23,247 bases of DNA from a virus. Lineage: Duplodnaviria; Heunggongvirae; Uroviricota; Caudoviricetes. Of this stretch, positions 9,505 through 22,027 are shown piece after piece (the first letter of the stretch is position 1; each line of letters begins with the position of its first letter). The notes beneath the pieces were generated by a model. It did not search any database. It was not told the DNA's origin and saw only the letters and a program-made list of their open reading frames with translations. A program made the position numbers and the translations under genes. The stretch is from IMG/VR virus record IMGVR_UViG_2713896770_000034. The stretch is one strand, 5' to 3'.

Positions 9505-11271
9505 ATGAACACCACACTGACACCCGCAGATCTCGATCCCCGTCGGCAGGCCATGCTGCTGTACTTTCAGGGATACCGCGTAGCCCGCATTGCTGAAATG
9601 CTGGGCGAGAAAGTTGCAACCGTTCACAGCTGGAAAAAACGCGACAAGTGGGGTGACTATGGGCCGCTGGATCAGATGCAGCTCACCACCGCCGCACGCT
9701 ACTGCCAGCTCATCATGAAGGAGCACAAAGAAGGGAAAGATTTCAAAGAGATTGACCTGCTAGCGCGCCAGTCTGAGCGCCACGCGCGGATCGGCAAGTT
9801 TAACAATGGCGGCAACGAAGCCGACTTAAACCCTAACGTCGCCAACCGCAACAAAGGCCCGCGCCGTCAGCCGGAAAAAAATGTCTTCACCGATGAACAG
9901 ATTGAGAAGCTGGAAGAAATCTTCCATTCCTCCATGTTCAACTACCAGCGCCACTGGTGGGAAGCCGGAAAAACCAACCGCATCCGCAACCTGCTGAAGT
10001 CACGCCAGATCGGCGCGACCTTTTACTTTGCCCGTGAAGCCCTGATTGACGCCCTGCTTACCGGGCGTAACCAGATTTTCCTTTCCGCCAGTAAGGCACA
10101 GGCCCACGTCTTTAAGCAGTACATCATCGACTTCGCCAAAGAAGTGGAGGTGGAGCTGAAAGGCGATCCGATGGTGCTTCCTAACGGGGCCACGCTTTAC
10201 TTCCTCGGCACCAATGCCCGCACGGCCCAGAGTTATCACGGCAACCTGTATCTGGATGAATATTTCTGGATACCGAAATTTCAGGAGCTACGCAAAGTGG
10301 CTTCCGGTATGGCTATTCACAAGAAATGGCGGCAGACCTATTTTTCCACACCATCCAGTCTGACCCACAGTGCTTATCCGTTCTGGTCCGGTGCGCTGTT
10401 CAACCGTGGGCGCAACAAAGCTGACAAGGTGGACATCGACCTGTCCCACAGCAATCTGGCCCCCGGCCTGCTGTGCGCAGACGGGCAATACCGCCAGATA
10501 GTCACCGTGGAAGATGCGGTGCGCGGCGGCTGTAACCTGTTCGACCTCGACCAGTTGCGCATGGAGTACAGCCCGGACGAATACCAGAACCTGCTGATGT
10601 GTGAGTTCGTAGACGATCTCGCGTCCGTGTTCCCGCTCAGCGAGCTGCAGGCGTGCATGGTGGACAGCTGGGAAGTCTGGACCGACTTTCATGCACTGGC
10701 CCTGCGCCCGTTTGGCTGGCGCGAGGTGTGGATCGGTTATGACCCGGCAAAAGGTACGCAGAACGGCGACAGTGCCGGATGCGTGGTGGTGGCACCGCCA
10801 GCCGTGCCGGGCGGCAAGTTCCGCATTCTTGAGCGTCACCAGTGGCGCGGGATGGACTTTCGCGCCCAAGCTGACGCCATCAAAAAACTGACCGAACAGT
10901 ACAACGTGACCTATATCGGCATCGACTCAACCGGCGTTGGTCACGGGGTTTATGAGAACGTGAAAGCGTTCTTTCCTGCCGTCCGGGAGTTTGTCTACAA
11001 CCCCAACGTTAAAAACGCCCTGGTACTCAAGGCCTACGACATTATCAGCCACCGCCGTCTGGAGTTTGACGCCGGGCACACCGACATTGCGCAGTCATTC
11101 ATGGCAATCCGTCGCGCCACCACCGCCAGTGGCAACCGCCCGACCTATGAAGCCAGCCGCAGCGAAGAAGCCAGCCACGCCGATCTGGCCTGGGCAACGA
11201 TGCACGCACTGTTTAACGAACCGCTGCAGGGCGAATCCGCCAATACCAGCAATATTGTGGAGATTTTTTGA
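9505..11271 (+). CDS. P: Terminase large (ATPase) subunit P
   Basis: 588-aa ORF (P2 gpP is about 590 aa), divergent from O; stop overlaps Q start (TGATG). Confidence 0.9.
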   Translation: MNTTLTPADLDPRRQAMLLYFQGYRVARIAEMLGEKVATVHSWKKRDKWGDYGPLDQMQLTTAARYCQLIMKEHKEGKDFKEIDLLARQSERHARIGKFNNGGNEADLNPNVANRNKGPRRQPEKNVFTDEQIEKLEEIFHSSMFNYQRHWWEAGKTNRIRNLLKSRQIGATFYFAREALIDALLTGRNQIFLSASKAQAHVFKQYIIDFAKEVEVELKGDPMVLPNGATLYFLGTNARTAQSYHGNLYLDEYFWIPKFQELRKVASGMAIHKKWRQTYFSTPSSLTHSAYPFWSGALFNRGRNKADKVDIDLSHSNLAPGLLCADGQYRQIVTVEDAVRGGCNLFDLDQLRMEYSPDEYQNLLMCEFVDDLASVFPLSELQACMVDSWEVWTDFHALALRPFGWREVWIGYDPAKGTQNGDSAGCVVVAPPAVPGGKFRILERHQWRGMDFRAQADAIKKLTEQYNVTYIGIDSTGVGHGVYENVKAFFPAVREFVYNPNVKNALVLKAYDIISHRRLEFDAGHTDIAQSFMAIRRATTASGNRPTYEASRSEEASHADLAWATMHALFNEPLQGESANTSNIVEIF

Positions 11272-12320
11272 TGGGAAAGAGTAAGAAGAACCGCGCTGCG
11301 GCGACGAACCAGATTCAGCATAAAAGCCAGACTTCAGCCGAAGCATTCAGCTTTGGCGATCCCATTCCAGTACTGGACCGCCGCGAACTGCTGGACTATG
11401 TGGAATGCGTACAGATGGACCGCTGGTATGAGCCGCCCGTCAGCTTTGACGGACTGGCACGAACCTTCCGCGCCGCCGTGCATCACAGCTCACCAATTGC
11501 GGTGAAATGCAACATTCTGACCAGTACCTACATCCCTCACCCGCTGCTCAGCCAGCAGGCTTTTTCACGTTTTGTGCAGGACTATCTGGTATTTGGTAAC
11601 GCCTACCTGGAGAAACGCACGAACCGCTTCGGTGAAGTTATCGCCCTTGAGCCTGCTCTGGCAAAATACACCCGACGCGGGTTAGACCTGGATACCTACT
11701 GGTTTGTGCAATACGGTATGACAACCCAGCCGTATCAGTTCACGAAAGGCAGCATTTTTCATCTGATGGAACCGGATATTAATCAGGAGATCTACGGCCT
11801 GCCCGGCTATCTTTCTGCCATTCCGTCCACCCTGCTCAATGAGTCCGCCACGCTGTTCCGTCGAAAGTATTACATTAACGGCAGTCATGCTGGCTTCATC
11901 ATGTACATGACCGACGCTGCGCAGAACCAGGAGGATGTGAACAACCTCCGCAACGCGATGAAAAGCGCCAAAGGTCCAGGCAACTTCCGCAACCTGTTTA
12001 TGTACTCGCCTAACGGCAAAAAGGACGGGCTTCAGATCATCCCGTTGTCAGAAGTCGCAGCGAAAGATGAATTTCTGAACATCAAGAACGTGAGTCGTGA
12101 TGACATGATGGCCGCGCATCGTGTTCCGCCACAGATGATGGGGATTATGCCGAATAATGTTGGGGGTTTTGGGGATGTGGAAAAAGCGAGCCGTGTCTTC
12201 GTCCGCAATGAACTGATGCCGCTGCAAAAGCGGCTGCAGGAGCTGAATTACTGGCTAGGTAAAGAGGTGATCCGCTTCGAGCCCTACACGCTGGGAATAG
12301 ACACAAACAACGATAGCTAA
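11271..12320 (+). CDS. Q: Portal vertex protein Q
   Basis: Track ORF starts at TTG 11268; ATG at 11271 gives 349 aa (P2 gpQ about 344 aa); follows P in one operon as in P2. Confidence 0.9.
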   Translation: MGKSKKNRAAATNQIQHKSQTSAEAFSFGDPIPVLDRRELLDYVECVQMDRWYEPPVSFDGLARTFRAAVHHSSPIAVKCNILTSTYIPHPLLSQQAFSRFVQDYLVFGNAYLEKRTNRFGEVIALEPALAKYTRRGLDLDTYWFVQYGMTTQPYQFTKGSIFHLMEPDINQEIYGLPGYLSAIPSTLLNESATLFRRKYYINGSHAGFIMYMTDAAQNQEDVNNLRNAMKSAKGPGNFRNLFMYSPNGKKDGLQIIPLSEVAAKDEFLNIKNVSRDDMMAAHRVPPQMMGIMPNNVGGFGDVEKASRVFVRNELMPLQKRLQELNYWLGKEVIRFEPYTLGIDTNNDS

Positions 12321-12371: not shown

Positions 12372-13043
12372 TTATCGCTCTTCCCCAAGAATTCCGGTCT
12401 TAATCAGCTGATTCCAGAAGTTTTTCATTTTCTGTCCTGTCTGCTGATTAACAAATAGAGATGATCTGGCACCGTGCGGATATCCCATCAACTGCCCGCG
12501 CATATCTTCCCAATTTTCACAATAAACTGCATGCCGCCAGTTAGGAACCTCGCTTTCAAGCATCAATCCAATTGCTGCTTTTGCTGGAATGGTGCCATCC
12601 TCTTCCATATCTTCCGAAATAAGCCAATGGCATTTTATTAACAACGGGACGGCGTTGTCATTATAAAGCACAACGTCATCAATCTTCTCAATAGAGAAAT
12701 GGGCATCCGTGTGCTTTAGACGTTTTATACCAGCTATAAATTCATCAACCCTATGACCATAAGGACAGGTAAGAATGCCGTTCCTGAAATAGACCGTGTG
12801 GTCCAGGTATTTAAAGCTAGGAGTATTATTGGGAGTCATAGGCGCCCAAATAGCTTTATCTCTTTCCAGCAAAAAAGGATGCCATGCTGGATACCCATCC
12901 ACTACTGGCCCACATTCTTCAACAATTTCTTTGAGCTTCGCCCTAACTTTCGAACGCATCTCCTGATTTGAACCTTGTGGAACTAGATATCTGTAAGCAT
13001 TTTCGAAATTCGATGCTGCTGCTTCTTCCGCTCTGAAAGCCAT
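12372..13043 (-). CDS. Hypothetical 223-aa accessory protein, no recognisable family
   Basis: ATG at 13043 preceded by GGGGTG; plausible sigma70 promoter (TTGATA-18 bp-TATATT) upstream; G+C visibly below the phage backbone; lies between portal Q and cos where P2 has no gene. Confidence 0.65.
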   Translation of the reverse strand: MAFRAEEAAASNFENAYRYLVPQGSNQEMRSKVRAKLKEIVEECGPVVDGYPAWHPFLLERDKAIWAPMTPNNTPSFKYLDHTVYFRNGILTCPYGHRVDEFIAGIKRLKHTDAHFSIEKIDDVVLYNDNAVPLLIKCHWLISEDMEEDGTIPAKAAIGLMLESEVPNWRHAVYCENWEDMRGQLMGYPHGARSSLFVNQQTGQKMKNFWNQLIKTGILGEER

Positions 13044-13263: not shown

Positions 13264-13282
13264 CTCGTATCCCCGCCACGCC
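13264..13282 (-). other. cos site (P2/186-type cohesive end)
   Basis: Minus strand reads GGCGTGGCGGGG followed by ATACGAG; the first 12 nt match the 186 cos cohesive end as I recall it (GGCGTGGCGGGGAAAGCAT; P2 GGCGAGGCGGGGAAAGCAC). Located between Q and the replication side, as in P2. Confidence 0.55.
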
Positions 13283-13561
13283 TGCCCGCTTTATGTAGTG
13301 GTTTTCATGCACCTGCATGTTCTACGTAAAAGCCCGCTAGTTCTGGCGAGCCTTAGCAAAAACGATCCTTAAACGATCATGCGATTTCATGCAGCATAGT
13401 CATGCACTGTCTAAGAGAAGTGAAAGTCCGTATCTGAATGACCACTTGAAAAACGAAACATACAGACTTACAAAGATGAAGCTCTACTGTGAGCGAGGAA
13501 CATACATAGTTGCTCTGTAATAGCCAAATTTTAAGCAGGAAATCTCTTTTTTATGACAAAA

Positions 13562-13600
13562 CTATAAAGAAAAACAGACCGTTTCATCGCTCGATGAAAA
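13562..13600 (-). terminator. Possible intrinsic terminator downstream of the 525-aa gene
   Basis: Inverted repeat TTTCATCG/CGATGAAA right after the stop codon, followed on the minus strand by TGTTTTTCTTT. AT-rich stem, so weak. Confidence 0.3.
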
Positions 13601-13604
13601 TATA

Positions 13605-15182
13605 CTACAATACTTTTCTCTCGATGGTATTTTTAATGGTCAACATATCTTTAGGAATACTTTTTTTCCCCTCTATACGTATGGTAAACACAAAAAGAAT
13701 AACGGCTGATCTCACAATTTTCATGAGTTGTAAGAGCTGTTTCTCAAACTTTTCTTTCTCAATAAATCTCACCTCATCAAAAAATCCATAAGAATTATAT
13801 AAATCAACTAACATGTCTTTCTCGTGAATAACTAACAGTTTATGTTCTAAATCATTCCTCCATTCTTTAAAAAAAGCAAGCTCACCATTTTTATCATTCA
13901 AATCCATAGCAATACTAAACAAACCCAGCAATCCTTTATTATTTATTTTGTTTATTTTAAGCTTTCTTTTTTCATCACTAATCCGCCAGAAGTTATGAAA
14001 GTATATATGTCCTCTATCTGGTTTTAAATCAAATAATTGACACAGAGCAACTGCTATTTTATCCAAGATACCAAAGCAAGCTCTAAATGCAACCCTTAAC
14101 TTCTCAACATTTTCATACAATATTTCTCCATTATACAATTCAGAATAACATACCTCCGAATCCTCATCAAAAAACTCACTATCAACCTTATATTCAAAAA
14201 ACATTTTTCGTGCTAAGGAATACTCAGCTTTAAGTCTATTTAACACCATTTCCATTGGCACTATAAAATCACCAAACACACCTTCCTCGGTGGTAGCAAT
14301 AGTTATATTATCTTTAGATGACGCATAACAATTGCAATATAGCGAATGATCAGACAACATTAGATTATTATCTATACAAAACCTCTGGTAGTTTGATAAA
14401 GTATCATACTCCTCCTGCGTGAGCCTTTCATCTGTACTTATATCCTCTATGCCATATACACATGATTCACTCAATATACTTTCGTTGTACTTTATTTTTC
14501 TTTGAAGAGCAACCTTCCATGAAGGAAAACATTTCCCTGACTTTATTGCACACTCATAACCTCGAATAACTTCTTTAATCATTTTATATGTATATGTTGT
14601 AGATAATTCATTAAGCAATTCTAATGCCTCAGATCTGTTTACCCACGCCTGAGGAATTGAGTTATCAATAGATATTGCTTGTTCATAATAATCCATTGAT
14701 TCAGATATACGATATTGTTTTTTTAATACATTAGCTAGATTAACTATTAAATCAGGGGGCACCCATCCATCTTCTTGTGAAAGTTTAAACGCTTTCCAGT
14801 AATTATTTTTTACATCATTCAGCTTAATGAAACTATCAATATCTGCATTGTCATTAGGATTAAAATCAAGAACTGCGCTCATTCCATTTGCCAAGTTATA
14901 GTAATATAAGGATTCTTTCATTATAGTCAGAAATTCATTTTTATTGTTTATAAAGATATTTAAGCCTTCCTCCGCTATATTTTTTACATTACTAAAACTT
15001 CCGATATCAATAAGATTTCCGGCCAAATTAGATAATATAATTATTCTATTTTCTTTGATTGTATTTATCTCATCGATACCGTTAAGAATATCCTTTACAT
15101 TTTTATAGGCAGAATCAAATGAACCTGCATTAATAAGATCATCTACGAACCCCATTTTTGAAACAACATAGTTGATATCCAT
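13605..15182 (-). CDS. 525-aa AT-rich accessory protein; N-terminal TPR-like helical repeats, C-terminal HEPN-like region with one R-N-x-x-x-H motif; candidate abortive-infection/defence effector
   Basis: ATG at 15182 with AGAGGA Shine-Dalgarno; 1578-nt frame open in very AT-rich DNA; RNDLEH at residues 442-447 (nt about 13842..13859); no Walker A and no reverse-transcriptase YxDD motif seen. Occupies the P2 old/tin position next to cos. Confidence 0.8.
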   Translation of the reverse strand: MDINYVVSKMGFVDDLINAGSFDSAYKNVKDILNGIDEINTIKENRIIILSNLAGNLIDIGSFSNVKNIAEEGLNIFINNKNEFLTIMKESLYYYNLANGMSAVLDFNPNDNADIDSFIKLNDVKNNYWKAFKLSQEDGWVPPDLIVNLANVLKKQYRISESMDYYEQAISIDNSIPQAWVNRSEALELLNELSTTYTYKMIKEVIRGYECAIKSGKCFPSWKVALQRKIKYNESILSESCVYGIEDISTDERLTQEEYDTLSNYQRFCIDNNLMLSDHSLYCNCYASSKDNITIATTEEGVFGDFIVPMEMVLNRLKAEYSLARKMFFEYKVDSEFFDEDSEVCYSELYNGEILYENVEKLRVAFRACFGILDKIAVALCQLFDLKPDRGHIYFHNFWRISDEKRKLKINKINNKGLLGLFSIAMDLNDKNGELAFFKEWRNDLEHKLLVIHEKDMLVDLYNSYGFFDEVRFIEKEKFEKQLLQLMKIVRSAVILFVFTIRIEGKKSIPKDMLTIKNTIERKVL

Positions 15183-15432
15183 TCAATCCTCTTTAAACTA
15201 AGCTAATAATACCAATCATTATATGGATGAGATCAATATAGAACATGCCATCTCCGGCAAAAATCGTACTACATCAGACCAGTGCCCTTCAAATAATATA
15301 AATTGAACTTAGATACTTCTGCTTCAACCAGTGTGTTAAATCCATCGCTTGAACTCAGAACAAAAAGCGGACGATCACTTATCAAAATGGCCGTCCACCT
15401 AACGCCTCGTTTCACTCGTTGCCCAAAATAGT

Positions 15433-15460
15433 CCCCCATCAGAATGAATCCTCTTGGGGG
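15433..15460 (-). terminator. Possible terminator hairpin after the DinI-like gene
   Basis: Inverted repeat CCCCCA ... TGGGGG (16-nt loop) about 10 nt after the stop codon, followed on the minus strand by TATTTT. Weak T-tract. Confidence 0.3.
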
Positions 15461-15469
15461 CAACGTTTC

Positions 15470-15703
15470 TTAATGCAGCCAGCTGTCGTCTTCCCACACC
15501 TTCTGCATAATTTTCATCACTTGCTTCCTTTCTTCGTCCAGTTGCAGTCCGGTCAGTTCCACACCGTTAGAGCTACCTTTGCGAATGCGAATTACCGTTT
15601 TGGGATACAGGGGGCGCAGATTGCGGTAAAGCTCGGATTCAAGGGCGTCCAGGGTAGACTGGCTAATCTTCTGCTCTTTATCGATCATTATTTCAATGCG
15701 CAT
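15470..15703 (-). CDS. DinI-like protein
   Basis: Track ORF 15470..15775; ATG at 15703 with GAGGTG Shine-Dalgarno gives 77 aa MRIEIMIDKEQ...WEDDSWLH, which matches E. coli DinI (81 aa) in length and in conserved positions (MRIE start, DAL..EL, acidic W-containing C-terminus). Confidence 0.85.
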   Translation of the reverse strand: MRIEIMIDKEQKISQSTLDALESELYRNLRPLYPKTVIRIRKGSSNGVELTGLQLDEERKQVMKIMQKVWEDDSWLH

Positions 15704-15713
15704 AAAAGTCACC

Positions 15714-15902
15714 TCAGCTGATGACATCCATTGAGCGGTTGTATTCGTGGGTTCTGATTTTTGCCATGAGTTCATCTGTCAGTTCAGAAACCCACTGCAG
15801 GGCCAGCCCCTTCTCTTCATCACTACACTCACTAGCCGCTACAAGCTTAAGAAAAAAATCAATGCGCTGGAGCTTCAAAGACTCCAAAAAATAGTCCTGC
15901 AT
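15714..15902 (-). CDS. Small SOS-regulated protein, possible Tum-like antirepressor N-terminal part
   Basis: Track ORF 15714..16004; ATG at 15902 preceded by AGGAGG, 62 aa; sits directly downstream of the LexA box and upstream of the DinI-like gene. Function inferred from context only. Confidence 0.5.
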   Translation of the reverse strand: MQDYFLESLKLQRIDFFLKLVAASECSDEEKGLALQWVSELTDELMAKIRTHEYNRSMDVIS

Positions 15903-15945
15903 CTTTCCTCCTATGACACCACAAGCAATACTGTACGCATAACCA

Positions 15946-15961
15946 CTGTTTATATTTACAG
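15946..15961 (-). promoter_or_regulatory. LexA operator (SOS box) overlapping a sigma70-like promoter
   Basis: CTGTTTATATTTACAG is a perfect CTGT-N8-ACAG with an AT-rich spacer (20-mer CACTGTTTATATTTACAGTA); about 44 bp upstream of the small ORF start; candidate -35 TTTACA and -10 TATACT on the minus strand overlap it. Confidence 0.7.
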
Positions 15962-16055
15962 TATATAATAATCTTACTGATGTAAAACGTTTTTTTACGT
16001 TCATCAGCCTGATATACCTGGTATTATTAAGAGCACGAATTGTTAACCCGCGTAA

Positions 16056-18470
16056 TTAATACAGGTTCCGCCACTTATCATCTTCCTGCAAACGCTGGTT
16101 CCGATAGAAAATACGCAGGCCTGCTCCTGACGGAATGCTGCCGCCGCGAAGGAGTAAATCGACCTCTTTCTCGCTGCCATCAAATCCTCTGGACTTCAGT
16201 TCATAGACGAGCTGCTGTCGCTGATGATCTGTAATTCGCTGTTTGTAGTCTCTACGCCGTTTCGGTTTCACCAGGCGTAACCTTGCAGCCAGTTCCCGGC
16301 GCTCTTTTTTGTTCATACTGTGCAGGTAATCGTGCAATTCCTTGTCATCCATGCGGGTGATATCCGTTCTGGTATCCCCATCAGCTGATTTGTCTTTCCC
16401 TTGTTGGTACAAATTTTCAGCAAGGGGACAGTTATTGCCACGAGTCCAAGGGGCGCAAGCGCCCTGGTCGGCTGCCGCCTCCTGAACGTCAACGGCCTTA
16501 CGAACCATTTTCCACTTCACTGCATGAGTGCAAATCTTGCCCTGTACAATGGGTGACCAGATGCCATAAATACGAATACCGTGATCGCCATAAGCAGTCG
16601 GCTCTTCGTTAATTTCATAAGCTGTTCTGATAAGGTGATATTTGCGGGGAACCAGTACGCCGCCCTGCTTCATGATGTAGGTGGCAAAACAACCAGCATC
16701 AGCAGCAGCCAGGATGGCATCAAGGCGCGGGTTATCCAGTACCGGCGCACCTGCTTTTTTGTCCCCCTGTTGCCTTGCCGCCTGACCAGCCAGCAATCGC
16801 AGTTCACGGTAAGCCTGACGCCCCGGAATGCCAAAGAAGCGGAATTGCTGAACACGATGCAGAGACGCCCAGGCATTAACGTATTCAGCATTATCACGCA
16901 GGGATTTACCCGTTTCCTTGCTGATCTCGCCAGCCAGACCACGCCCGTCAATGTTCTTACTGATGTATTTCGCGATGTAGCTTGTCGGTGTTCCTTTGCG
17001 TGGGTTTATCAGCTCAGATTTAAAGCGTGGACCAGTGTTATTACCCAGTTCCTCGCGGTCTTCACGGATGGCAAACTTACGCAACAATGCAGTAATGGCG
17101 CGGCGGTCTTTTTTGCGCATGAAACACATGAGATGCCAGTGCACAGTACCGTCATGGTGCGGCTCAGCCACCCGCACGCCATACCAGCGCAACCCGGCTT
17201 TGTGCATAGCCTTACGAAATGCAGCAAACATGCCGACCAGATAATCGCTGCTTTGTCTTACCGTCGCATTTGTCCAGGTCGGGTTGGGTCTGCCGTTGTT
17301 GAGCGTGGAATGGAAACGTGACGGACAGGTGATAGTGTAGAAAACGGCGCAGTCACCACGCATTTCTGCGATAAGCTCCAGACCTTTAACACAGGCCATC
17401 ATCTCATTGCGGCGATGTGCCGGGTTGCTGCTGCTGGCGTTTACCACATCTTCCATATCCAGCGTGTCGCCGTCTTCGTTCACCAGTTCATGAGAACGGA
17501 AAAACTCCAGCGACTTACGGCGCTGCTCACGTTTATGCGTCACGGCTTCATAGCTGACATAGGGAGATGCTTTTTTGCTGACCAGGCAGACAGCACGCAA
17601 CTGCTCTTCCCGCCATTCGCAACGCATCTTCCACAATTTTCGATACCACCAGTCGGCGCAAAGCATACGTGCCAGCGAACCCGGTATGAGTTCATAGGGC
17701 ACGGGTTTGCGGCGGTTTCTTTTCCGGCGGAGTTGCTCAAACGCAGGCGGGATAACATCCAGTCGCAGGGTTTCCGCTGCCACCTTTTCCCATGTCTTGC
17801 GGATTTCTTCTGGCTTAACGTCATCGGTGGCATATAAATCGCCACAAGCGGCATCAAGGCACATGCTCATATGCGCAGCTACCAGGGTGGACAGGCGTTT
17901 TACCTGATCCTGACTCATTTCAGGCAGGATCAGCAGGCCCTCAAGCCCTTGATGGCTTGCCATAAAACGGAAAGAAGCGGATAGCTGACTGTCGCGTACA
18001 CAATCCAGTCGCTCCAGACATGGCTTAATCGTCTCACGCAAATAGCGGGAATAAGCCTTTGGCCTGCCCAGGCTGCTGAAGTATTCGATACGTTGCATCA
18101 GCGGCTTGCTGATGTGGGTAGGCTGGGCGCTGACATCTGCCAAAATGACCATGTCCGGGTTAAAAAGCTGCTGCTCATGCGCAAGCTTTGCGCGGCTAAT
18201 GAGCTTATCCTGCTCCATTTCGCGCTGGACAGGATCACGGGATTCATTAAAGAAATAACGCTCCCAGACCTGCTCACTCAGTGCCTCGCGGCGCAGTTGT
18301 TCCTGCTCGTTATCGGCAGCATACAGAGTGATCAGGTTTGAAAGTGCAGACTCCGGCGCAAATTCCGCCGGGTCCAGATAAGGGTTAATGGCCTTTTTCG
18401 GGCCGTTCCATGAAAATGATGCAGCGGCCTCGTTAAAGCCGCTAGAGTTGCTCATATCGTCATGACTCAT
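16056..18470 (-). CDS. A: Replication initiation protein A (P2 gpA-type rolling-circle endonuclease)
   Basis: 804-aa ORF containing TVHWHLMCF (HUH-like) and SYIAKYISK (paired tyrosine) motifs; start overlaps the Dam stop. Confidence 0.9.
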
Positions 18471-21125: not shown

Positions 21126-21250
21126 GATGCAACATTCCTCGTTTAATGATGATTAATCAGGACGAATACGGATCGTTTGTATTTTGTGAACACCATAAAC
21201 ATACGATCGCACAGTGAAATCGTCAAGATAAAAGTTCACTTGGAGTGACC
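21126..21250. promoter_or_regulatory. Immunity switch region between the Apl-like gene and cI (expected lytic/lysogenic promoters and operators)
   Basis: About 120-bp AT-rich intergenic region between divergent regulator genes; individual promoters and operators not resolved by eye. Confidence 0.4.
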
Positions 21251-21820
21251 ATGAATTTGGAGAAAGGCGGACGAGGCGCTATAGAGCGCATGGTAGAAGC
21301 TTATGGATTCAAGACTCGACAGGCGTTGTGCGATCATTTAGGAATCTCTAAAAGTACACTCGCCACACGCTACATGCGTGACTCATTCCCAGCAGAATGG
21401 GTAATCCAGTGCGCCCTTGAAACAGGCACCTCGCTTAATTGGCTCACAACCGGGCATGGTTCAAAGCAAACTTCAGGTAATACAAATACTATGGAAGTTG
21501 CTAAATATGTATTATCTGATGGGGCCTTGTGTGAAGACGGTTTTTATATTTTCGATAGAGAATTTCTACCGTCGGCATTCAAGAATCTTTTTGTAATCAC
21601 AGATAATAATTCTGAATTTATTTGTGATAAGGAATTTGATGATATACGTGATGGTAAATGGGTAATAAGTATTGATGGCGAAATAACGATCCGTGACATT
21701 ACTCGTTTACCCGGTGGAAGAATCTTCGTCGAGGGTGGAAACAGAGCCTTCGAATGCAAGATAGAAGACATTGAAATAATTGGTAAAATTATAAGTTTAA
21801 CAGTCAAGTATGTTAAATAG
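21251..21820 (+). CDS. cI: 186-type CI immunity repressor
   Basis: Track ORF begins at GTG 21245; ATG at 21251 with GGAG Shine-Dalgarno, 189 aa; N-terminal ..VEAYGF..HLGISKSTLATRY..CALETGTSLNWLTTG resembles 186 CI (192 aa). Confidence 0.8.
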   Translation: MNLEKGGRGAIERMVEAYGFKTRQALCDHLGISKSTLATRYMRDSFPAEWVIQCALETGTSLNWLTTGHGSKQTSGNTNTMEVAKYVLSDGALCEDGFYIFDREFLPSAFKNLFVITDNNSEFICDKEFDDIRDGKWVISIDGEITIRDITRLPGGRIFVEGGNRAFECKIEDIEIIGKIISLTVKYVK

Positions 21821-21835
21821 TACCGGGAGGAAATT

Positions 21836-22027
21836 ATGCTTGGTAAGGTATTTTTTGTGGTTTTGTCATGTTCTTTGTTATTAAACCCACTAGCTACCTA
21901 TGCTAGAAATTATCCCTGCTCAGGGAAAAAGGGAGGTGTTTCTCACTGTACCTCTGATGGCAAATTCGTTTGCAATGATGGAACTATTAGTAAATCCAAA
22001 AAAATCTGTACTAAAAACTCACGATAA
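21836..22027 (+). CDS. Small secreted cysteine-rich protein (63 aa), candidate lysogeny-expressed moron
   Basis: Strong GGGAGG Shine-Dalgarno 6 nt before ATG; N-terminal hydrophobic signal-like segment ([19 protein letters not shown]) then a Lys/Cys-rich mature part with 5 Cys; AT-rich; between cI and int. Confidence 0.55.

Follow-up and report, generated by a model that had tools for sequence, protein, structure and literature searches.

A gene for a 525-aa protein lies on the minus strand of a 23,247-nucleotide (nt) stretch of viral DNA (Caudoviricetes; IMG/VR record IMGVR_UViG_2713896770_000034), which was analysed over its full length and is referred to here as the window. The window corresponds to half of a P2/186-type prophage, and we assign the protein, with high confidence, to the LA2681 family, in which TPR repeats are joined to a HEPN domain. 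The G+C content of the gene is 30.7% (26.8% at third codon positions), against 50.7% for the window and 47-57% for the flanking phage genes, and the 500-nt segments with the lowest G+C of the whole window (0.298-0.328) are those at 13501-15000. The next lowest value, 0.356 at 21501-22000, covers the 186-type CI repressor gene (21245-21820) and the stretch before the integrase. The order of the cos-like site, the DinI-like gene and replication gene A (gpA) places the gene in the slot of old and tin in P2, between the cos-like site on one side and the DinI-like gene and gpA on the other, with the portal and terminase genes beyond cos. A first-pass annotation, made from the sequence alone, had described the gene as compositionally foreign (about 30% G+C, judged by eye) and as sitting at the old/tin position, and both descriptions are borne out by the computed values and by the gene order. 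The positions of all features are collected in Table 1.

The domain content of the protein was examined using a Pfam scan, which at E<=1 matched only HEPN_LA2681 and TPR models. The HEPN_LA2681 profile (PF18733) aligned with residues 309-504 over profile positions 9-204 of 204 and scored 132.4 bits (cut-off 27; E=1.8e-38), so the protein is a member of an already named HEPN family, a point that the first-pass annotation had left undecided when it proposed a HEPN-type region in the C-terminal part. All 120 homologues listed carry PF18733, and NCBIfam gave no significant match to the 525-aa protein. AlphaFold2 models the full-length protein as all-helical, with a predicted local distance difference test score (pLDDT) of 86.7 and a predicted template modelling score (pTM) of 0.89. 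In Foldseek comparisons its N-terminal ~240 residues match TPR superhelices, the top matches being the TPR domain of OGT, consensus TPR proteins and MamA. A family profile based on 38 sequences also reached TPR proteins in the PDB (OGT and consensus TPRs), with E values down to 1e-13 at profile positions 127-197, and matched no solved HEPN protein by sequence. The segment that had been singled out as TPR-like at first sight comprises residues 165-192, and the reading of the N-terminal half is thus upheld by both the family profile and Foldseek. As whole-protein Foldseek searches were swamped by TPR matches, we modelled the C-terminal half separately. The model has the four-helix up-and-down bundle fold of the HEPN superfamily and contains an R-x4-6-H motif with a polar residue following the arginine. 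Its HEPN matches include Csm6, LsoA, RnlA and the integron-cassette HEPN protein 3jrt, with some generic four-helix bundles among them. The fusion of this domain to N-terminal TPR repeats is the arrangement described for the LA2681 family in 2013, and the two-domain architecture is fixed across the family.

Translation places the motif RNDLEH at residues 442-447, as reported before, and R442, N443, E446 and H447 are invariant in 38 of 38 and in 56 of 56 homologues, across phyla; the motif is of the catalytic type, R-N-x-x-E-H. Four further residues stand out in the same 56 sequences: H279 (kept in 54), C283 and C285 (55 each), all in the region between the two domains, and C369 (56), which falls in the HEPN part; their conservation suggests a possible structural metal site. 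The protein has no Walker A motif or P-loop, in agreement with the earlier reading, and no ATPase domain was found in the Pfam scan. The two halves evolve under purifying selection of different strength. Against the Salmonella and Yersinia copies, the ratio of nonsynonymous to synonymous substitution rates (dN/dS) is 0.115-0.118 for the HEPN part and 0.20-0.21 for the TPR part, and family-wide mean pairwise identity is 57% for HEPN and 37% for the TPR part, the least conserved domain. The pattern is that of a conserved, predicted catalytic module joined to a faster-evolving putative sensor.

Table 1. The TPR-HEPN gene, its parts and flanks, and the surrounding prophage features (positions in the window)
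Feature	Position	Strand	Basis or remark
TPR-HEPN protein, LA2681 family, coding sequence	13605..15182	-	525 aa plus stop, ATG start; open reading frame and PF18733 match
N-terminal TPR-like alpha-solenoid, residues 1-240, proposed sensor/regulatory domain	14463..15182	-	AlphaFold2 helical hairpins; Foldseek
Best-matching canonical TPR unit, residues 145-183	14634..14750	-	Pfam TPR_10, TPR_8 and TPR_2, sub-threshold (E=1e-3 to 7e-3)
Linker/cap region, residues 241-306, with near-invariant H279, C283 and C285	14265..14462	-	conservation among homologues
HEPN domain, residues 307-507	13662..14264	-	PF18733
R-N-D-L-E-H, residues 442-447, predicted catalytic motif	13842..13859	-	verified by translation; invariance
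Conserved 5' flank, ~143 nt	15183..15325	-	aligns with the sequence upstream of the homologues in L013 (Salmonella prophage) and L008 and L009 (Yersinia islands)
Conserved 3' flank, ~123 nt, non-coding, possibly a terminator	13482..13604	-	~80% identity with L013, L008 and L009
Cos-like site CTCGTATCCCCGCCACGCC	13264-13282	.	parts the cargo slot of the HEPN gene from the 223-aa gene beside the portal
223-aa open reading frame	12372-13043	-	between the portal stop and the cos-like site
Portal	11268-12320
Terminase	9505-11271
DinI-like gene	15470-15775	-	Pfam DinI, E=1.3e-22
Small phrog_698 gene	15714-16004	-	phrog_698, E=1.5e-37
Replication gene A (gpA)	16056-18470	-	Phage_GPA, E=5.9e-128
Conserved P2/186-type neighbours bounding the hotspot (DinI-like, phrog_698, gene A)	15470..18470	-	RefSeq annotation agrees

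The earlier suggestion that the gene might represent a new system or family does not stand. The LA2681 HEPN family was named, and its TPR fusion noted, in a survey of the superfamily (Anantharaman et al., 2013, Biol Direct 8:15), and a near-identical E. coli protein is annotated as LA2681 HEPN in RefSeq (WP_000354145.1), the DNA of the two genes being 99.9% identical. In the portion of the hotspot table of Rousset et al. (2022) that was available, 'HEPN_LA2681 WP_000354145' is entered in P2 loci, with the accession appearing at least 14 times, and the gene is not among the cloned systems in Tables S2A and S2B of the same study. The machine-learning tables of DefensePredictor give an LA2681 family protein a log-odds score of 9.1 (cut-off 4) and the label 'Predicted novel defense gene'. 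Both the family and the locus are therefore already known. The defence hotspot is well described and the HEPN family, though named, is uncharacterised, and we regard the gene as a credible, though not new, candidate antiviral gene.

We then considered how widely the gene and its family are spread. The exact gene (at least 99% identity) is rare: of 5426 complete E. coli genomes 11 have it, each time at the same P2 site, and among IMG/VR viral contigs there are three copies, with 99-100% identity. The match in ECONIH5 (locus L002, 4497-6038) is one base shorter (1577 nt) and the copy is annotated with a later start (1542 nt), which suggests a frameshift near its 5' end. Full-length homologues of ~500-550 aa are found in Enterobacterales, Vibrio, Pseudomonas, Cellvibrio and Moraxellaceae, in Campylobacterota, Betaproteobacteria and Desulfobacterota, and further in Bacteroidota, Ignavibacteria, Chlorobiota, Calditrichota and Acidobacteriota. 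An exhaustive profile search of 1.84 billion representatives yielded 245 clusters (50% identity) at E<=1e-30. In a neighbour-joining tree the window protein falls within a distinct Enterobacterales clade of copies carried by mobile elements.

Homologues 81-83% identical to the gene occur in a Salmonella lambdoid prophage beside the Q antiterminator (L013) and in integrase-bearing islands of Yersinia (L008 and L009), contexts that are unrelated to each other and to the window apart from the gene and its immediate flanks. Within the conserved 5' flank, TATAAT at 15218-15223 is invariant and a ribosome-binding site, AAGAGGA, is found at 15187-15193; this flank is probably the gene's own promoter and leader. 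Neither conserved flank has an Rfam match or repeats, and their consensus fold is weak. Judged from these alignments, the gene behaves as a mobile, self-contained unit of ~1.85 kb.

Next, the open reading frames within 4 kb of the gene were clustered across 61 loci. No neighbour family was present in more than 11 of them, none recurred outside a single clade, and there is no partner reading frame inside the cassette. Together with the flanks that travel with the gene, this lack of a recurrent neighbour supports a protein that acts alone and is expressed from its own promoter, and it agrees with the first reading of the locus, in which no partner gene had been seen. A 64-aa reading frame at 15269-15463 was considered as an antitoxin and rejected, as about half of it lies beyond the conserved flank and RefSeq leaves it unannotated. 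In one Enterobacterales clade, the HEPN gene is preceded on its own strand, at a distance of 28-49 bp, by a gene for a 1356-aa protein (L021, L022, L025, L027 and L058, from Citrobacter, Moellerella, Pantoea, Rahnella and Phytobacter; also L079/L080). The 1356-aa protein has a P-loop motif (GDPGAGKT) and a PD-(D/E)xK-like C-terminus and is without a family in the Pfam scan; the truncated upstream gene in L079 has a DUF8371 match on its record. The pair may be a two-gene variant of the system.

The setting of the gene in the prophage has the features of the P2-like defence hotspot of Rousset et al. (2022), in which the stretch from portal Q/cos to replication gene A differs in cargo between prophages while its flanks are conserved. 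Besides the genes in Table 1, the window encodes a Dam-type methylase, a CII-like regulator, a 186-type CI repressor and an integrase. The cargo differs between E. coli prophages with the same flanks, and in prophages that bear the HEPN gene the portal-side neighbour encodes 223 aa in the window, 554 aa in EC100 and 120 aa in ECONIH5. A search for the exact P2 cos 19-mer, with up to 3 mismatches, gave no match in the window; the cos-like site was found by comparison with the clones of Rousset et al. (2022). It is identical to the corresponding stretch of their P2-like clone pFR109 (E. coli E1114), is positionally equivalent to the P2 cos sequence in their old-tin-orf91 clone, and differs from the P2 19-mer at about 5 positions. 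This homology would make it a functional cos site. The 223-aa neighbour was also considered as a partner and set aside, since it lies beyond the cos-like site and is absent from all 11 E. coli genomes with the HEPN gene. It is found in 24 of the 5426 complete E. coli genomes, and in N64, the one inspected, a P-loop NTPase replaces the HEPN gene across cos; unlike the window, no complete E. coli genome pairs the two genes. The 223-aa protein has no Pfam, PADLOC, PHROG or NCBIfam match; its family, of ~222-aa proteins, is uncharacterised and widespread in Gammaproteobacteria.

Several genomic contexts of the family point to defence. A divergent homologue in E. coli UTME-7 (L015; NZ_CP169029.1, 8772-10343), with 66% nucleotide identity to the gene over part of its length, occupies the psu-int hotspot of a P4-like satellite beside ssrA, the stretch described as the P4 hotspot by Rousset et al. 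(2022). Family members are thus present in both a P2-like prophage and a P4-like satellite, which indicates that they were captured independently by the helper family and by its satellite. In Cellvibrio japonicus the gene lies on a relaxase-bearing element and adjoins AbiEii/DUF6088, Fic, a Gp49/HTH pair and ArdA, and in Vibrio parahaemolyticus it adjoins Mrr_cat, with a Cap4-type nuclease ~4.4 kb downstream. AbiTii, PRTase-CE, a TaqI_C/EAD9 protein, DUF6079 and DUF5677 are neighbours at other homologue loci, and several further loci have ordinary housekeeping neighbours.

The protein was compared with systems that have been named. With the LA2681 family itself (PF18733), which is known only from sequence analysis, there is no structural difference: the protein is a direct member and keeps the R-x4-H motif. 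ApeA, a single-gene HEPN system of abortive infection (Gao et al., 2020), and the 'HEPN-TPR' candidate pFR83 from the P4 hotspot (Rousset et al., 2022) are likewise single proteins with a HEPN and an accessory domain from P2/P4 hotspots, and we infer from the HEPN_Apea entries in the P4 hotspot table that pFR83 is of the ApeA type. The 525-aa protein, in contrast, has no HEPN_Apea or ApeA_NTD1 match in the Pfam scan and no detectable similarity to pFR83 (BLASTP E=2.1), in which the order of the domains is reversed: there the R-x4-H motif (RSSFVH) lies upstream of the region assigned to TPR by the depositors, whereas here the TPR region comes first. We therefore rejected pFR83, and likewise pFR103, the 'putative HEPN' clone from P2, as the same gene, neither having detectable similarity to it. 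More generally, no domain specific to the ApeA, AbiD-F, AbiJ, AbiU2 or AbiV families of HEPN abortive-infection proteins was matched (Pfam, E<=1).

HEPN toxins of other kinds differ in architecture and in their partners. In the HepT/MNT systems (type II/VII), HepT is a single domain of ~130 aa that is neutralised by an adjacent MNT nucleotidyltransferase, whereas the 525-aa protein has a TPR solenoid, no MNT neighbour and 8-11% sequence identity to HepT. PrrC/RloC and RnlA/LsoA are HEPN RNases that stay latent until a phage infects, when they cleave tRNA or mRNA; RNA ligases can repair the products. PrrC/RloC have an N-terminal ABC-type ATPase and are tied to restriction-modification, and RnlA/LsoA have a dedicated antitoxin; the 525-aa protein has neither a Walker A motif nor partners of these kinds. 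Avs/NLR-like STAND proteins and the TIR-NLR found in the P4 hotspot are proposed to sense a phage component through a repeat domain, which then switches on a fused effector. Such systems need a central NTPase for oligomerisation, and the 525-aa protein is without one.

A second genomic context of the family is the RNA-repair operon. In ten Psychrobacter/Acinetobacter loci and in an unclassified gammaproteobacterium (L037), the gene sits between rtcB and rtcA, with rtcB usually 63-114 bp upstream on the same strand and rtcA usually 20-144 bp downstream, and in most of these loci a divergent rtcR is found further upstream. Pfam verifies the identity of RtcB (E=2e-131), RTC (3e-70) and RtcR (6e-69). 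A Chitinophagaceae (Bacteroidota) locus, L056, has the HEPN gene followed by rtcB alone, 41 bp apart, and a metagenomic locus, L077, has a cluster in the order Ro60, RtcB, HEPN, DUF6847, AAA, RtcA. At the rtc-linked loci (L035-L045, L061, L037, L056 and L077) a DUF6847 gene often accompanies the HEPN gene. The Moraxellaceae copies form essentially one clade of the neighbour-joining tree and L056 stands apart from them among Bacteroidota sequences; the catalytic residues are kept in the rtc-linked copies. For the copy studied here, no rtc gene lies within the 23-kb window.

This linkage bears on the predicted chemistry of the family. RtcB ligates 5'-OH ends to ends with a 2',3'-cyclic or 3'-phosphate, 5' tRNA halves with cyclic phosphate ends activate RtcR (Hughes et al., 2020), and metal-independent RNases, most HEPN enzymes included, leave ends of the 2',3'-cyclic phosphate type. 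The rtcB/rtcA linkage fits cleavage products with 2',3'-cyclic phosphate ends and, taken with this end chemistry, lends independent genomic support to the cleavage predicted for the family; it also parallels the ligase-reparable products of PrrC/RloC and RnlA/LsoA. In the Gifsy-1 prophage of S. Typhimurium 14028s, deletion of a strain-specific gene for a hypothetical HEPN protein, STM14_3211, which may or may not be an LA2681 member, left RtcR activation unchanged (PMC9879122). The P2/P4 cargo and rtc contexts lie outside the 2013 description of the family, and the rtc-operon association and the cassette boundaries are additions of the present analysis.

The position of the gene and its domains point to an abortive-infection function. 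With slightly better than even confidence in the mechanism as a whole, we favour a stand-alone, prophage-encoded RNase of the abortive-infection type that is triggered by phage. The cassette, with its own promoter region, would be weakly expressed in the lysogen and the protein would stay latent. The TPR solenoid would detect a cue of infection, most plausibly a phage protein or peptide, upon which the HEPN domain would switch on as a metal-independent endoribonuclease, in which, as in other HEPN RNases, two R-x4-H motifs are probably paired in a dimer. Its cuts, in tRNA, rRNA or mRNA, would produce ends with 2',3'-cyclic phosphate and 5'-OH, and translation would be arrested before the invading phage completes its cycle, so that the infection is aborted. 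As such ends are substrates of RtcB, repair by the host Rtc system might reset the cell.

A number of observations weigh against a phage-triggered defence RNase. A consensus promoter scan called no site upstream of the gene, the -35 region being poor. Foldseek put HEPN toxins at the top for the C-terminal half, without significance on their own. PADLOC v2.0.0 gave no matching system model, its only matches being to a generic TPR model (E=3.5e-4) and to Csx1/Csm6 (E=0.074), and the defence-model search suggested at the outset thus came back without a significant system; PHROGs had no model matching the 525-aa protein, and a tblastn search of 50,697 GenBank phage records found no copy. Our search of the literature on the LA2681 family turned up the 2013 survey and no experiment on any member. 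Finally, about one fifth of the sampled loci lie in chromosomal rtc RNA-repair operons and not on mobile elements, so defence is not the only context of the family and a reading outside defence is opened.

The two contexts could also be joined. It is tempting to speculate that LA2681 TPR-HEPN proteins protect against phage as single-gene systems and that the RNA damage they cause is functionally tied to Rtc repair, although we hold this only tentatively and think it rather unlikely. Nicks in tRNA or rRNA would leave 2',3'-cyclic phosphate ends, at once an activator of RtcR and a substrate that RtcB reseals. Given the chromosomal rtcBA operon of E. coli, the arrest in this host would then be reversible and not suicidal, and the Moraxellaceae nuclease would have been domesticated into the repair operon.

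An unlikely alternative to a defence effector is an accessory nuclease of RNA repair or quality control that trims or re-cuts damaged tRNA or rRNA into clean 2',3'-cyclic phosphate and 5'-OH ends for RtcB; the prophage copy would in that case give the lysogen tolerance to stress. The loci with rtcB or rtcA in Psychrobacter/Acinetobacter, L037, L056 and L077, with their catalytic residues kept, are what such a role would predict. Against it, mobile elements carry both the window copy and its closest relatives and no rtc genes lie near these, the rtc-linked copies amount to essentially one clade and one or two independent events, and the patchy distribution, AT-richness and location in defence hotspots are typical of conflict genes. 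An addiction or stabilisation toxin that keeps the prophage or island, with an RNA from the flanks, its own TPR domain or host RtcB repair as the antidote, appears a little more doubtful still: the locus has no MNT or other conserved partner reading frame, the flanks have neither repeats nor an Rfam match and have only a weak consensus fold, and a P2-like prophage has no obvious need of such a module.

We consider it improbable that the gene benefits the phage in a way other than host defence, either by remodelling host RNA at induction or by acting against P4 or rival prophages only. It shares the minus strand with the early and replication genes and follows gpA and the DinI-like gene in the direction of transcription, and the presence of family members in both P2 and P4 suggests a conflict between helper and satellite; the conserved promoter region of its own, however, argues for expression independent of the early operon, and the cassette is also found in contexts other than P2. 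A non-functional relic, or a non-catalytic protein with a coincidental RNxxxH, is very improbable, for although the motif arises by chance in 1.6% of shuffles of the 525-aa protein and the ECONIH5 copy has one base fewer and a shorter coding sequence, the invariance of the motif in the homologues (56 of 56) makes its chance origin irrelevant, dN/dS is 0.12-0.21 and the full-length architecture is kept in ~245 clusters.

The gene had been annotated, listed at this locus and predicted as defensive before, so that the window itself is of modest value as a discovery. The link to rtcB and rtcA leads to testable predictions on the chemistry of cleavage and on the resetting of the arrest by host RNA repair. 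If validated, the system would be very compact, with one gene, no NTPase and no partner, and would offer a simple model of a TPR sensor that gates a HEPN RNase. A family known from sequence alone would then become a working defence system, with ~245 clusters in many bacterial phyla.

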